64,000 nucleotides of DNA from a virus. Each line of letters opens with the position of its first letter. Positions within the stretch are counted from its first letter, which is position 1. Location of the stretch: positions 32,001 to 96,000 of the IMG/VR virus record IMGVR_UViG_3300042731_009106, one strand, 5' to 3'. A program made the position numbers and the translations under genes. This document shows, in pieces, positions 6,013 through 44,346 of this stretch. Under the pieces are notes generated by a model that was given only the letters and a program-made list of their open reading frames with translations, ran no database searches and was not told the DNA's origin.

Positions 6013-7056
6013 ATGGTAAAAAAAGTAATTATTACCGGAGTTACCGGTCAAGACGGTAGCCACATGGTCGATTTCTTATTGAGAGAAACTGACTATGCAA
6101 TTTTTGGCGGAGTAAGACGCCTTAGTGTTAAAAATCACACTAATATAAAACATAATTTATCTAATGATCGTTTTGAGTTAGTGCCTATTGATTTATCAGA
6201 TCCTTATTCAATTAGAAATGCTATTGAAGAAATAAAACCTGATTATTTTATAAATTTTGCAGCACAATCTTTCGTGACTGCTAGTTGGAAATATCCTATA
6301 CAAACATGGAACTGTGACTCTACTGCAATTATTCATATTCTAGAATCTATACGTTTAATTGTGCCTCACTGTAAATTTTATAATGCTGGATCATCTGAAG
6401 AGTTTGGGGACATTGTATATAGCCCTCAAAACGAAAGCCACCCATTAAACCCTCAATCACCATACGGTGCAGCTAAAGCTGGTGCTAGGCAAATAGTTAG
6501 AGTCTACAGAGAGTCCTTTAATTTATATGCCGTTCAAGGTTGGTTGTTTAACCACGAAGGAACTCGTAGAGGTAAAGAATTTGTTACTCGTAAAATTTCT
6601 TCAAGTGTCGCTAAAATAAAAATTGCACTAGAAAAAGGCGAAAAACCAGAGACTTTAATGCTAGGAAACTTAAATGCAGAAAGAGACTGGACTGATGCAG
6701 AAGATTTTATGTCAGGTGTTTGGCTTATGCTACACCAAGATTCTCCTAAAAATTATGTCCTAGCTAGTGGAAAAACTTATACTATTAGATTTTTTCTAGA
6801 AGAGTGCTTTAAAGTTGCTGGAATTAATTTCACAAGAAGAGGTAAAGGAATCTCTGAAGCCTACTACGACAATAAAGGCAATATATTAGTAGCGATTAAC
6901 CCTGAATTCTTTAGACCAGCCGAAGTAAAGCATTTACTAGGAGATCCAACTAAAGCGGAAGAAGAGTTGGGTTGGACTAGAAAGTGTGATATTTATGGGT
7001 TAGTTGCAAAAATGTATCACAACGACTACGCTCTAGAAAGTGAAAAAAAAGCTTAA
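6013..7056 (+). CDS. gmd: GDP-mannose 4,6-dehydratase
   Basis: ITGVTGQDGSH, AAQSFV, SSEEFG, PQSPYGAAK, LFNHEG.RRG.EFVTRKI, GNL.A.RDW. Confidence 0.97.
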   Translation: MVKKVIITGVTGQDGSHMVDFLLRETDYAIFGGVRRLSVKNHTNIKHNLSNDRFELVPIDLSDPYSIRNAIEEIKPDYFINFAAQSFVTASWKYPIQTWNCDSTAIIHILESIRLIVPHCKFYNAGSSEEFGDIVYSPQNESHPLNPQSPYGAAKAGARQIVRVYRESFNLYAVQGWLFNHEGTRRGKEFVTRKISSSVAKIKIALEKGEKPETLMLGNLNAERDWTDAEDFMSGVWLMLHQDSPKNYVLASGKTYTIRFFLEECFKVAGINFTRRGKGISEAYYDNKGNILVAINPEFFRPAEVKHLLGDPTKAEEELGWTRKCDIYGLVAKMYHNDYALESEKKA

Positions 7057-7990
7057 TGTTGTTATAGCTGGTAGCAATGGCATGGTAGGCTCCGCAGTCT
7101 ACCGTACTTTATTATCTAGCGACAAATACTTTCCAGTTGAATTAAACAGACATATAGCAGACATCACTCAACCTTTTGATGTTAAAAATTTTTTAAGACT
7201 TACATCACCTGATATTATTATTAATTGCGCAGCTAAGGTTGGAGGCATTAATGCTAACAATACATATCCAGCAGATTTCATTAGAGATAATTTAAAAATT
7301 AATATTAATTTAATTGATGCTGCTTATGAGTATGGAGTCGAAAGATTTATTAATCTTGGCAGTTCTTGTATTTACCCAAGAGATGCATCACAACCCTTAA
7401 AAGAAAATAGTCTATTAAGTGGACCTTTAGAAAAAACAAATGATGCTTATGCTTTAGCTAAAATAGCTGGACTGGAAATGTGTAGGCACTATCGCAATCA
7501 GTATGGAGTTTACTATCATTCTCTCATGCCAACTAATTTGTATGGAGACAATGACAATTATCATTTAAAAGATTCTCATGTTTTACCAGCTCTTATCAGG
7601 AAAATACATGAAGCCAAGGTTTCCGGCATGAGCGCTGTACAAATGTGGGGAACAGGCGAAGCCAAGAGGGAGTTCCTTCATGCTAATGATGTTGCTGATG
7701 CAATTATTTTCTTGCTTGACCAAAAAGATTTGCCTGACATTATTAATATTGGCACAGGCTCTGATTTAAAAATTTCAGAGTTGGCTAACTTGATTAAAAA
7801 TATTATAGGTTTTCAAGGAGATTTTATCTATAATACAGATATGCCTGACGGTACACCAGTAAAAAGGCTAGACATGTCTATAATGAATAGTTTAGGCTGG
7901 AAACCGAAAATAGATTTAAAAACAGGTTTAAAGTTAGCTTATAAAGACTATCTTAAAAGGTTAGAAAACAAGACCCTTAGGGGGCTCTAA
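7040..7990 (+). CDS. fcl: GDP-L-fucose synthase
   Basis: GSNGMVGSA, CAAKVGGI.AN..YPADFI..NL, LGSSCIYP, YALAKIAG, PTNLYG.NDN, GTG.A.REFLH. Confidence 0.96.
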   Translation: MKKKLNVVIAGSNGMVGSAVYRTLLSSDKYFPVELNRHIADITQPFDVKNFLRLTSPDIIINCAAKVGGINANNTYPADFIRDNLKININLIDAAYEYGVERFINLGSSCIYPRDASQPLKENSLLSGPLEKTNDAYALAKIAGLEMCRHYRNQYGVYYHSLMPTNLYGDNDNYHLKDSHVLPALIRKIHEAKVSGMSAVQMWGTGEAKREFLHANDVADAIIFLLDQKDLPDIINIGTGSDLKISELANLIKNIIGFQGDFIYNTDMPDGTPVKRLDMSIMNSLGWKPKIDLKTGLKLAYKDYLKRLENKTLRGL

Positions 7991-42680: not shown

Positions 42681-44346
42681 AAAATTAACTGTTGTTACAG
42701 GTATCTGGGACCTAAAGCGTGAAGATGCTGGCGAAGGTTTTCAGAGGGTATTTTCTCATTACATAAAGCATTTTCAAAAGCTTCTGGCTAGTGATTATAA
42801 TTTAGTTATTTTCATTGATCCCAAACATGAACACGTGGTATGGGATTCGGGCAGATCTAAAGAAAATACTTTTATAATTCATAAGCCAAGCGAATCCTTT
42901 CGAACTGACTTTCCTTTTTATGATTTAGTTAACGAGATAAGGCACAAGCCTGAATGGTTAGATCAAGTTGGCTGGCTAAAAGATAGCACTCAAGCCACTT
43001 TAGATCTATACAACCCAATGGTAATGTCTAAAATGTTCATGCTGAATGATGCATGCCTACATAATCCTTTTGGTAGTGAATATTTTATTTGGATTGATGG
43101 CGGTATAACTAATACTGTTCATGAAGGTTATTTTACTCATGATAAAGTGTTGGATAAAATTGATCAGTTTATAAATAAATTTCTATTTGTTTCTTTTCCA
43201 TATCCCGATGGCCCTGAAATTCATGGTTTTTCTCGTTCAGGAATGCAGTCTTACTGTGACGAAGATCCTCAGTATGTCTGCAGGGGAGGTATCTTCGGTG
43301 GGCATAAAGACTTTATAGCGGAAGCTAATGCTACTTATTATTATTTATTATTTAATTCTTTGACTGCTGGCTACATGGGCACGGAAGAAAGTATATTTAC
43401 TATAATGTCTCACAAAGAGCCTAGTAAATACTCTCGCTTTGAACTTAAAACTGAAGACGCTGGACTACTGTCTCCTTTTTTTGAAGTTCTTAAAAATCAC
43501 AATACCCTAGAGGTCCCAAAATTATCTAAACCTGTATCCAATAAGTGTTCTTTATATGTTTTAACGTTTAACTCTCCAGATCAATTTTCAAAACTTATAC
43601 AATCTTTTAAACAGGTTCCAAACTTCTTTGATTTAGTAGACAAGTATGTCTTAGATAACTCTACAGATAGTTCAGTTTTTGAGATCAACCAAAAAATAGC
43701 TGATGACAACGGGTTTACTTTAATTAAAAAAGATAACATAGGTATTTGCGGGGGTAGACAATTTATTGCTGAGCATTTCGCTGAAACAGATTCTGAGTAT
43801 ATGTTATTTTTTGAGGATGATATGTTCTTAAACCCACCTAGTGCTTCTGGCTTTTGCAAAAATGGCTTTCGTCAATACGTTGAAGATTTGCTACCCAAAA
43901 GCTTAAGGATAATGAATAAGCATAAATTTGACTTCCTCAAGCTGTGTTTTACGGAATTTTTTGGAGACAATAGAACTCAATGGTCTTGGTATAATGTACC
44001 TCAAGATGTTAGAGAAAAATACTGGCCTAATTACAACCAACTACCAGAGCATGGCTTGGACCCAAATGCTCCACTATTATCTTTTGGCGAAATGGGGTTT
44101 GAAGACGGCTTGACATTTCTTACTGGAGAGATTTACTATGCTAATTGGCCTCAAATAGTAAGCCAAGAAGGTAGTCGAAAAATGTTTCTCGACACCACTT
44201 GGGCCCATCCTTATGAGCAGACATGGATGTCTCACATATATCAAGAAACTAAGAGTGGTAACATCAAGCCAGCTATTCTATTAGCCACGCCAATTACTCA
44301 TGACAGGTTTGTTCATTACGATCAATCACAAAGGGTAGAAAGTTGA
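42667..44346 (+). CDS. HtrL/YibB-like domain fused to a GT-A domain
   Basis: Start placed at MTSNKK (ATG 42667); TVVTGIWDL, SKMFML, FIWIDGG, RGGIFGG, GTEESIF; C-terminal DNS, NIGICGGR, FFEDDM. Confidence 0.75.
   Translation: MTSNKKLTVVTGIWDLKREDAGEGFQRVFSHYIKHFQKLLASDYNLVIFIDPKHEHVVWDSGRSKENTFIIHKPSESFRTDFPFYDLVNEIRHKPEWLDQVGWLKDSTQATLDLYNPMVMSKMFMLNDACLHNPFGSEYFIWIDGGITNTVHEGYFTHDKVLDKIDQFINKFLFVSFPYPDGPEIHGFSRSGMQSYCDEDPQYVCRGGIFGGHKDFIAEANATYYYLLFNSLTAGYMGTEESIFTIMSHKEPSKYSRFELKTEDAGLLSPFFEVLKNHNTLEVPKLSKPVSNKCSLYVLTFNSPDQFSKLIQSFKQVPNFFDLVDKYVLDNSTDSSVFEINQKIADDNGFTLIKKDNIGICGGRQFIAEHFAETDSEYMLFFEDDMFLNPPSASGFCKNGFRQYVEDLLPKSLRIMNKHKFDFLKLCFTEFFGDNRTQWSWYNVPQDVREKYWPNYNQLPEHGLDPNAPLLSFGEMGFEDGLTFLTGEIYYANWPQIVSQEGSRKMFLDTTWAHPYEQTWMSHIYQETKSGNIKPAILLATPITHDRFVHYDQSQRVES

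Follow-up and report, generated by a model that had tools for sequence, protein, structure and literature searches.

Threonine-rich tail stalks and GT60-family enzymes suggest mucin-type glycosylation of the virion in an uncultured tailed phage lineage

We analysed a 64,000-nucleotide stretch of viral DNA (the window), which is bases 32001-96000 of the 139,273 bp IMG/VR record IMGVR_UViG_3300042731_009106 (G000) and which carries two dense blocks of genes for glycan synthesis. Positions labelled "window" are counted from the first letter of this stretch, and those labelled "genome" refer to the whole of G000. Based on the genes and on structure prediction, we propose, at about even confidence, that the phage would carry out mucin-type O-glycosylation of its own tail-decoration proteins in the host cytoplasm, independently of a lipid carrier, with chains initiated by glycosyltransferases (GTs) of family GT60 and capped with sulfate and methyl groups. 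A wider statement is offered more tentatively, as somewhat less probable than not: that in a widespread lineage of large aquatic phages the tail is coated with mucin- or proteoglycan-like glycans bearing sulfate, fucose and methyl groups, made in the bacterial cytoplasm by 50-60 soluble, phage-encoded Golgi-type enzymes that are exchanged in serotype-like fashion. Five further records (G001-G005) were compared in full and further lineage records were scanned by profile or pattern. G001 (146 kb) is collinear with G000 and its core genes have 57-90% amino-acid identity, and G002 (214 kb), G003 and G005 belong to the same lineage at a greater distance. The core genes of G004 are unrelated to those of G000, but the GT60 pair is common to both.

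The candidate initiating enzymes are encoded at the head of the second block (block B), where the start of the first gene overlaps the end of a recA-like gene:

34692..37225, + strand: tandem GT60 (PF11397) enzymes, candidate Thr-directed N-acetylhexosamine (HexNAc) initiators (Pfam E 5e-63 and 6e-68)

The pair scores 214 and 230 bits against PF11397 (equivalent to CAZy GT60), for which the cut-off is 21. An AF2 model of the second copy (pLDDT 91.4, pTM 0.88) was searched against the PDB with Foldseek, and the best approximately 45 chains are all polypeptide N-acetylgalactosamine (GalNAc) transferases (ppGalNAc-T; E 4e-10 and weaker). In an independent VIA all-against-all comparison with this model, GalNAc-T1 (Z 21.5, 293 residues aligned) and Toxoplasma GalNAc-T3 (TgGalNAc-T3, Z 20.0) ranked first, ahead of chondroitin polymerase (Z 17.3) and of generic GT-A enzymes at about 16. 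Residues D99-S100-H101 (DSHH motif) are invariant in 18 homologues, and we take this D-S-H motif to be the equivalent of the DxH metal motif of ppGalNAc-T. A hydropathy scan revealed no hydrophobic segment in either copy, i.e., no Golgi-type II anchor. Cytoplasmic, Skp1-modifying members of GT60 are also soluble. GT60-like proteins are also found in uncultured Caudovirales and giant viruses (Megaviridae, Pandoravirus), and more than 7000 metagenomic protein clusters match the family, many of them on contigs of 200-300 kb; contigs of about 216 kb encode GT60 with 69% identity. The characterised mucin-type GT60 enzymes, from Dictyostelium and Trypanosoma cruzi, add alpha-linked N-acetylglucosamine (GlcNAc) to Thr of mucin-like proteins, and a peptide with a run of Thr serves as acceptor in vitro (PMC3769586). 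In our literature search, no publication on this lineage or on phage GT60 enzymes came up. Searching the PDB by sequence with the GT60 protein, the GT60 profile, a profile of the putative tube protein and a 639-aa GT-B protein (both described below) returned nothing useful. A search for the HPAT/GT95 family gave no match, and its positive control also gave none.

Candidate acceptors for these enzymes are encoded in the tail module. Three proteins (genome 2448-4721, 4723-6279 and 9895-12312) contain Thr-X tracts of 193-235 residues (TQTQTPTVTQT...) with 62-104 Thr each and roughly 260 Thr in all, and no such tracts were found in other G000 proteins. The 757-aa stalk protein is a paralogue (E 8e-31) of the product of the tube-position gene (genome 745-2376). 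In both this protein and the 518-aa stalk protein, the stalk is followed by a Calx-beta end (genome 4326-4718 and 5698-6276) that matches Na/Ca-exchanger CBD structures in the PDB (E 2e-3 and 8e-10), giving an architecture of anchor, mucin stalk and Calx-beta. G001 encodes five Thr-tract proteins in its tail module, one with an 850-residue TPTSTI tract. In relatives, the tube-position gene is just upstream of a tape-measure-like gene, and the Atlas neighbour cluster of its product is partly annotated as Phage_tube_2; PF18906 did not match this protein. At least 574 IMG/VR contigs, of lengths up to 214 kb, encode relatives of the tube-position protein.

The only tRNA in G000 is a tRNA-Thr(UGU) (genome 118209-118284; L004:2209-2284, + strand). 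Its cognate codons, ACA and ACG, account for 58% of Thr codons in the stalks vs 43% elsewhere. We rejected this tRNA as a lineage marker of stalk expression, given that G001 has no tRNA at all.

Thr tracts were searched across the lineage as a codon pattern of eight Thr at alternate positions. Matches occur in G000 (177), G001 (374), G010 (44), G011 (152), G052 (203) and G051 (10), and this set coincides precisely with the subclade of at least 60% tube identity. The pattern is absent from 39 other lineage records, except for short TP linkers (G017, G020) and a low-complexity artefact (G049). Within the lineage, GT60 was identified in G000, G001 and G010 only. More than 40 lineage records carry neither GT60 nor Thr/Ser-X tracts, the TP linkers in two of them aside. 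Outside of it, GT60 enzymes of at least 41% identity occur together with Thr/Ser-X tracts in G006 (142 matches), G007 (4) and G004 (TPSVTPS-type), and two small fragments with GT60 of just 30% identity lack such tracts.

Machinery for a lipid-linked route was sought widely. The priming transferase family PF02397 (Bac_transf) and the flippase family PF01943 (Wzx) are absent from G000, G001, G002, G010 and G011 (10/14 and 13/14 control genomes were positive, respectively). Hydropathy analysis of all open reading frames (ORFs) of G000-G005 identified one polytopic protein per genome (331-401 aa), which has terminal transmembrane (TM) segments and a coiled-coil middle and is encoded in the replication module, outside the islands of glycan genes. 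There is no polytopic candidate for a WecA-type priming enzyme in these records, and this coiled-coil protein is the only one with at least three TM segments in G000, G001 and the 214-kb G002. The sequence-only reading, which preceded this work, had noted that no exporter or priming enzyme is visible in the window; this holds for the rest of the G000 record (the part of that genome missing from the record was not searched) and for G002, a relative with all virion modules. It had also noted that almost none of the enzymes has a membrane anchor, and indeed neither a TM segment nor a signal-like N-terminus was detected in any G000 glycan enzyme when all islands were scanned for hydropathy.

The G000 copy of the polytopic protein (331 aa; window 48751-49746, + strand) has GTGTAA 9 nt upstream. 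In all lineage members the gene is located between nuclease and PHP/Pol III genes. Its terminal TM segments, coiled coil and location in the replication module, outside the islands, led us to reject it as a flippase.

The glycan enzymes of G000 are numerous. At least 49 ORFs have domain-level evidence for such a function, and they are distributed over five islands that together occupy about 59 kb (42% of the record). We identified precursor enzymes for GDP-fucose and dTDP-6-deoxyhexose, about 30 GTs, 9-10 sulfotransferases and at least four methyltransferases. Eight ORFs match PF03567 (Sulfotransfer_2) above cut-off, and in alignment A1 of the sulfotransferases the motifs for binding of 3'-phosphoadenosine 5'-phosphosulfate (PAPS) are conserved (PKxGxT of the 5'-PSB and RNP...R..S of the 3'-PB). 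Sulfotransfer_2 genes were detected in 20/48 lineage records (10 per genome at most) and in 0/14 control cellular genomes. Adenosine 5'-phosphosulfate (APS) kinase was not found in the G000 record. APS-kinase-like ORFs are present beside islands in G001 (23770-24021) and G002 (169999-170244), with PF01583 matches (E 8e-14 and 4e-13) that cover the N-terminal 90 positions only. As sulfotransferases are spread across the lineage and GT60 and stalks are confined, sulfated glycans appear to be a lineage trait, and GT60 with stalks a subclade trait.

In the pathway that we propose, the GT60 pair would transfer HexNAc (by family, GlcNAc) to stalk threonines in the host cytoplasm. Enzymes of the GT31, GT10, GT92, GT25, GT32, GT8, GT61 and GT90-like types would extend and fucosylate the chains, drawing on host UDP-sugars and on GDP-fucose made by the phage. 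The sulfotransferases would use host PAPS (supply by the host is assumed; some relatives add an APS-kinase-like gene) and, together with the methyltransferases, would cap the chains. The tail would then carry a polyanionic, mucin-like brush. Some of the enzymes may act on other acceptors.

Most island genes of G000 and G001 lack a homologue in the other record at E < 1e-5, despite the 57-90% identity of the core. Common to both are gmd, fcl, three adjacent genes, the GT60 pair, an HtrL fusion and two edge genes. A 16 kb insertion (window 12.8-28.8 kb) of lower GC is private to G000. Whole sets of enzymes appear to be replaced, at fixed genomic positions, from one close relative to the next, and this replacement fits a surface structure under diversifying selection.

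Promoter-like sites were considered because the sequence-only reading had linked the motif GTGTAW at operon heads of glycan genes to structural-type genes. The enrichment is real (22/112 occurrences lie 8-12 nt before a start codon vs about 0.4 expected), and GTGTAW is found ahead of gmd, of three sulfotransferase genes and of genes in the tail module. It is not confined to structural and glycan genes, as it also precedes the gene for the large subunit of ribonucleotide reductase (RNR), a NUDIX gene, the leader of a helicase operon and the Clp ATPase gene. We rejected GTGTAW as a late-gene marker because it heads the RNR-large, NUDIX and Clp genes. A second promoter-like class, sigma70-like TTGACW-N17-TATAAT, is found before RNR-small, dnaB, PHP, dCMP deaminase and a small gene preceding recA. 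The two motifs give no timing information. For the GT60 block there is no separate promoter-like site; it comes after recA, whose stop codon overlaps the start codon of the first GT60 gene. The sigma70-like sites are upstream of window 29021, 33294, 45082, 49783 and 61683, and this class suggests a host with canonical sigma70 rather than a Bacteroidota-type promoter.

The earlier proposal of lipid-carrier-independent virion glycosylation thus gains from the stalks, the GT60 fold, the co-occurrence of the two and the absence of an exporter; its arguments from solubility and from GTGTAW do not discriminate, given soluble O-antigen GTs and the RNR, NUDIX and Clp genes. Several points weigh against mucin-type glycosylation of tail proteins. 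Bacterial GTs for O-antigen and lipopolysaccharide (LPS) are normally soluble and without TM segments, so missing anchors are equally expected of lipid-linked assembly. The association of GT60 with Thr tracts is consistent, but it reflects few independent events, essentially one clade within the lineage, and G011 (117 kb, 84% complete) has stalks without GT60. Conversely, G002, G003 and G005 encode 3-10 sulfotransferases and many GTs without stalks or GT60. Because these stalk-less relatives keep their sulfotransferase islands, Thr stalks are not the general or sole acceptor, and part of the enzyme set may have a role in host glycans. By gene order, the GT60 block belongs with recA, downstream of a sigma70-like promoter, rather than with the tail genes. 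Identification of the tail tube, and location of the stalk proteins on the virion, are putative and draw on synteny with tape-measure-like and fibre genes and on the Atlas lead; the AF2 model of the tube-position protein was unusable (pLDDT 38). The record is also a fragment, with no head, tape-measure or fibre genes. A virion sugar coat is probable, as read from genes and models alone.

The main alternative, though unlikely, is that the enzymes remodel the host envelope. They would alter the undecaprenyl-linked O-antigen, capsule, exopolysaccharide or LPS core of the host, with export by host flippases and ligases. The aim would be a block to superinfection or a changed cell surface, and the Thr stalks would be plain flexible linkers. 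Classic LPS and capsule families are indeed present (GT25, Caps_synth, HtrL/YibB, GT8, GT2, GT4), gmd, fcl and rfbB are standard O-antigen precursor genes, bacterial O-antigen GTs normally have no TM segments, and the hypervariable islands look like host O-antigen loci. Relatives without stalks retain large sulfotransferase islands, and LPS/GT clusters have been reported in pelagimyophages (PMC7029224) and T4-like cyanophages. However, G000, G001 and the 214-kb G002 encode no priming transferase, flippase, polymerase, ligase or ABC exporter. The best-scoring families (GT60, GT61, GT90, GT92, GT31, GT10) act on proteins or protein-bound glycans where characterised, the GT60 fold is nearest to peptide-directed ppGalNAc-T, and GT60 co-occurs with Thr tracts. 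Moreover, approximately 50 enzymes is far above the number in any known serotype-converting phage.

Less probable again is a reading in which the targets are mixed or are other proteins (fibres, capsid decoration or host proteins) and GT60 with the stalks is a recent addition in one subclade; a lineage-wide pair of GT-B enzymes would be one candidate for the ancestral initiators. These GT-B genes (639 and 363 aa) are present in all lineage members at 50-69% identity, adjoining fibre genes, and sulfotransferases are lineage-wide, with GT60 and stalks only in the subclade with at least 60% tube identity. On the other side, no alternative acceptor was identified in the G000 record, which lacks head and fibre genes. 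Glycosylation of modified phage bases as protection against restriction is highly improbable. There is precedent for phage GTs that build di- and oligosaccharides on DNA (Pyle et al. 2024, as cited in PMC12619734). The window also encodes a dCMP deaminase, a NUDIX protein and a nucleoside deoxyribosyltransferase-like protein. Yet PF00303 (thymidylate synthase/hydroxymethylase) is absent from G000-G002 (10/14 controls positive), and without a gene of the hydroxymethylase family DNA glycosylation is unlikely. For Sulfotransfer_2, GT60 and the remaining Golgi-type families no action on DNA is known, and the scale is implausible for such a role.

To our knowledge, virion glycosylation in phages has been demonstrated experimentally only in mycobacteriophages with a handful of GTs, and at the scale seen here we know of it only in giant viruses. 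Mycobacteriophages Che8, Corndog and others of clusters F and O have O-glycosylated virions (Freeman et al. 2023, as cited in PMC12619734 and PMC11256854). As summarised in those articles, soluble phage GTs act in the cytoplasm with no lipid carrier or exporter, as we suggest for G000, and sugars are added to Ser/Thr-rich extensions of tail-tube and capsid proteins, comparable to the candidate Thr-X stalks of the G000 tail module. According to the same summaries, mycobacteriophages use 1-4 GTs and short C-terminal tags, and their glycans have been shown by mass spectrometry. G000, unlike these phages, is known from genes alone and has at least 49 enzymes (including 9-10 sulfotransferases, methyltransferases and the GDP-fucose pathway), 200-residue stalks, two of which end in Calx-beta, and GT60 candidate initiators.

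The phage GT60 pair resembles DdGnt2 of Dictyostelium, TcOGNT-2 of T. cruzi and the GT27 ppGalNAc-T (PDB 8v9q, 6e4r, 2ffu) in PF11397, GT-A fold and D-S-H motif, and the Thr-X tracts, as possible acceptors, resemble the Thr-run and mucin-like acceptors of eukaryotic GT60 (PMC3769586). The eukaryotic mucin-type enzymes are Golgi type II membrane proteins, whereas the phage enzymes have no anchor and no lectin domain, possess a distinct beta-rich C-terminus of about 90 residues and would act in a bacterial cytoplasm.

Giant viruses offer a parallel in scale. The capsid of chlorovirus PBCV-1 carries glycans made with viral GMD/GMER and soluble GTs, and Mimivirus has glycans on its fibrils. G000 has in common with such viruses GDP-fucose enzymes, many soluble GTs, methyltransferases and clade-specific glycan clusters. 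In giant viruses structural proteins are the acceptors; in G000 the acceptors are candidates. Giant viruses also have eukaryotic hosts, genomes of 0.3-1.2 Mb and a smaller glycan share, and G000 adds many sulfotransferases. G000 is of the tailed bacteriophage type, as indicated by DnaB, DnaG, Pol III alpha, tmRNA, TerL (in the lineage) and sigma70-like promoters.

T4-like cyanophage P-SSM2 is reported to have an LPS/glycosyltransferase cluster. As in the marine phage P-SSM2 and the pelagimyophages (PMC7029224), clustered gmd- and GT-type genes are found here in variable regions with no exporter. The cyanophage and pelagimyophage clusters are of smaller size, without GT60, mucin stalks or arrays of sulfotransferases, and are usually read as host-surface or host-recognition functions; the present lineage also differs in having no T4-like core. 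Bacterial Wzx/Wzy or ABC loci likewise combine precursor genes with a string of soluble GTs, in a strain-variable set at a fixed locus, but the G000 record lacks the priming transferase, flippase, polymerase, chain-length regulator and ABC transporter. The principle is thus already known from mycobacteriophages, and on a larger scale from chloroviruses and mimiviruses. New here are the scale, the sulfotransferase array, the anchor-free Golgi-type families, the GT60 candidate initiators and the O-antigen-like turnover of islands.

If mucin-type glycosylation of the tail is correct, a full pathway with sulfation, fucosylation and methylation would operate in a bacterial cytoplasm, without endoplasmic reticulum, Golgi or lipid carrier, a capacity thought to be confined to eukaryotes and giant viruses. 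It would provide a compact, anchor-free toolbox (GT10, GT31, GT60, GT61, GT90, GT92 and carbohydrate sulfotransferases) for bacterial glyco-engineering. Phage ecology would gain a new variable through the charge of particles, their stickiness to marine gels and their resistance to grazing or proteases. It would become clear why hypervariable "auxiliary" DNA takes up more than 40% of a phage genome, and virus particles would have a "serotype" system in which enzyme sets are exchanged like an O-antigen locus.

We scanned all ORFs of at least 100 aa in window 6013-44346 with Pfam and NCBIfam; Pfam matches in the lists exceed the curated cut-off unless marked otherwise. Block A (6013-28783) contains the following:

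6013..7056, + strand: GDP-mannose 4,6-dehydratase (gmd), head of block A (Pfam GDP_Man_Dehyd E 3e-101)
7040..7990, + strand: GDP-L-fucose synthase (fcl) (NCBIfam GDPFucSynFcl E 1e-119; Pfam Epimerase)
8087..8479, + strand: Hsp20 small heat-shock protein of alpha-crystallin type, not a glycan enzyme (Pfam HSP20 E 2e-24)
8774..9769, + strand: ORF of 331 aa, no Pfam/NCBIfam match (47% identity to G001)
10011..11726, + strand: nucleotide-diphospho-sugar transferase (Nucleotid_trans) with DUF7796 (PF03407 E 2.5e-10, PF25072 E 2.4e-9)
11723..12811, + strand: GT61-like glycosyltransferase (PF04577 E 2.6e-29)
12798..13856, + strand: ORF of 352 aa, no Pfam/NCBIfam match and no homologue in G001-G005; opens the G000-specific 16-kb insertion
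13858..15344, + strand: two tandem DUF6492 (GT-like) genes (PF20102 E 3e-16, 2e-22)
15331..16692, + strand: fusion of GT25 and FkbM methyltransferase (PF01755 E 2e-8, PF05050 E 6e-6)
16693..20016, + strand: four-part fusion of 1107 aa, the domains of which are separate genes in G001 and G002
20031..20675, + strand: Methyltransf_24 methyltransferase (PF13578 E 6e-11)
20672..21280, + strand: possible sulfotransferase, weak, PAPS-loop region only (PF13469 E 6e-4, PF00685 E 9e-3, below cut-off)
21292..22227, + strand: dTDP-glucose 4,6-dehydratase (rfbB) (NCBIfam TIGR01181, 404 bits, cut-off 365)
22224..22673, + strand: small nucleotidyltransferase (CTP_transf_like; RfaE domain II/TagD-like) (PF01467 E 5e-14)
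22666..23448, + strand: ORF of 260 aa, paralogue of the C-terminal domain of the 1107-aa fusion, with a homologue in a G001 glycan island
23441..24082, + strand: Methyltransf_24 methyltransferase (PF13578 E 3e-8)
24079..24735, + strand: GT32-type (Caps_synth/DXD sugar-binding) glycosyltransferase (PF05704 E 7e-34, PF04488)
24647..25507, + strand: ORF of 286 aa, no Pfam/NCBIfam match
25530..26757, + strand: two tandem Sulfotransfer_2 genes, starts 25530 and 26110 (PF03567 E 3e-12, 5e-16)
26747..27715, + strand: possible GT47/exostosin-like enzyme, weak (PF03016 E 4e-3, below cut-off)
27707..28783, - strand: GT90-like glycosyltransferase, convergent end of block A (PF05686 E 8e-20)

In block B the GT60 pair is followed by these genes:

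37225..37875, + strand: Sulfotransfer_2 sulfotransferase (PF03567 E 3e-10)
37844..38665, + strand: GT10-type fucosyltransferase-like enzyme (PF00852 E 5e-11)
38662..39645, + strand: GT92-like glycosyltransferase (PF01697 E 4e-22)
39614..40321, + strand: GT31-type galactosyltransferase-like enzyme (PF01762 E 1.5e-10)
40314..41057, + strand: possible GT-A mannosyltransferase-like enzyme (Mannosyl_trans3), weak (PF11051 E 8.5e-3, below cut-off)
41054..41767, + strand: GT25-like glycosyltransferase (PF01755 E 1e-14)
41754..44346, + strand: two HtrL/YibB-like genes (PF09612 E 4e-3 for the first, below cut-off; 1.7e-8 for the second)

Pfam and NCBIfam agree with the initial naming of gmd, fcl and rfbB, and the gene first named as a cytidylyltransferase is matched as a nucleotidyltransferase. 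For gmd the best NCBIfam match has 320 bits, under the equivalog cut-off of 415, and the fcl-like epimerase has 399 bits, under the cut-off of 500; rfbB is above its cut-off, and the NCBIfam matches of the nucleotidyltransferase are all below theirs. The gmd gene, with GTGTAT 8 nt before its ATG, is kept in G001-G003 and G005. At 25530, the first of the tandem sulfotransferase genes has GTGTAA 11 nt before its first ATG. The second HtrL gene is fused to a GT2-like domain (PF00535, weak) and is common to G001 and G004; its listed TTG start (42517) overlaps the first HtrL gene and is probably too early. The Hsp20 gene lies within block A, after fcl and before the first glycosyltransferase genes.

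The whole 1107-aa ORF has no Pfam match above cut-off. Its parts are an N-terminal region of unknown function, a GT-like region (aa 256-523), a sulfotransferase-like region (aa 562-841) and a C-terminal domain that is a paralogue of the 22666 gene product (blastp E 5e-8). The sulfotransferase assignment is supported by both PAPS-binding motifs in the central domain, HTPKNAGTY (HxPKxxGT) and RDPFERALS (RDPxxRxxS), by an hhalign match of this domain to the profile of the sulfotransferase paralogues (91%, E 1e-6) and by a weak PF03567 match at aa ~565-724 (E 7.6e-5).

This bears out the count of four stand-alone sulfotransferases and one fused one, of which three are above cut-off, the one at 20672 is weak and the fused one is recognised by motifs and hhalign. 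The three methyltransferase domains are also recovered by Pfam (two Methyltransf_24, one FkbM). Among the GT families named from sequence, Pfam found GT10/25/31/32/60/61/90/92, HtrL and DUF6492, with GT47 weak and below cut-off; GT11, which had also been named, had no match in the scan of these ORFs. "More than 20 GT-like genes" is a slightly generous count: about 18 have domain evidence, and four further ORFs are unassigned. The size estimate of about 35 genes is close (about 32-34 in the window), but their arrangement in "two blocks" is an artefact of the window, as there are three more islands on the rest of G000.

The island at genome 24.4-31.6 kb encodes CAP59-like and FkbM proteins, two GT2, a GT-D and two GT8 enzymes. 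That at genome 101.7-115.5 kb encodes DUF5672, Sulfotransfer_4, a GT1-like enzyme, a GT32+GT25 fusion, GT32, three Sulfotransfer_2 enzymes and a STELLO-like protein. Two further Sulfotransfer_2 genes form the edges of the island at genome 121.8-127.5 kb. The lineage-wide 639- and 363-aa GT-B genes lie in a block adjoining the fibre genes, and their products match Pfam GT1, PDB 5i45 and Atlas GT4 clusters.

G000 has a GC content of 0.33, and 185 ORFs fill 97% of the record. In the window, the glycan blocks are flanked by genes for the RNR large and small subunits, NUDIX, a RecA-like protein, DnaB, a DnaG-like primase, a PD-(D/E)XK nuclease and a split PHP/Pol III alpha. Also present in the flanks are an RNase T-like exonuclease, a two-AAA Clp ATPase, UvdE, dCMP deaminase and Holliday resolvase, and the window includes a nucleoside deoxyribosyltransferase-like gene. 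Megablast of both window halves against 50,697 deposited phage genomes gave no DNA match, and tblastn with the tube-like protein found nothing in deposited phage records. Pol III alpha has matches of at most 33% identity, all to unrelated phages, and PHROGs left the tail module nearly blank (the single match, phrog_15511, is of unknown function). By these sequence comparisons, G000 has no cultured relative.

We identified a T4-type TerL, a cement protein, a 4460-aa tape-measure-like protein and a fibre-like giant protein in G002. Searches of G000 by tblastn for the TerL, portal-like, major capsid protein-like, tape-measure-like and fibre genes of the lineage gave no match, and G001 is also without head genes. 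With none of the lineage's head, tape-measure or fibre genes in the record, G000 is a fragment of a tailed phage genome, probably of 190-215 kb, and we rejected the CheckV estimate of 98% completeness.

A full-length, one-piece tmRNA that was missed by ARAGORN is present at window 57675-58038 (+ strand; Rfam RF00023, 133 bits). It is directly 3' of the Clp ATPase gene and a third paralogue of the tube-position gene. This paralogue (444 aa; window 56278-57612, + strand) is in the replication/Clp region, far from the tail module, and is kept in G001 at 57% identity. Three G000-specific genes are located between NUDIX and gmd (window 2584-5982, + strand). They encode a Ser/Thr-rich protein of 304 aa, a 582-aa protein with a DUF285 (BspA-like repeat) C-terminus and a 237-aa protein, one segment of which is 84% identical in G002; all three may be surface or fibre-like proteins. 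Near its head genes, G002 encodes two ConA-like lectin (Laminin_G_3) proteins of 738 and 528 aa (L069:1131-3344 and 4907-6490), which are possible glycan-binding virion proteins. G004 (L055-L062, 54.8-63.8 kb) has 27 tRNAs, including one with a CTA anticodon, and a coding density of just 0.91 under table 11; TAG recoding is possible.

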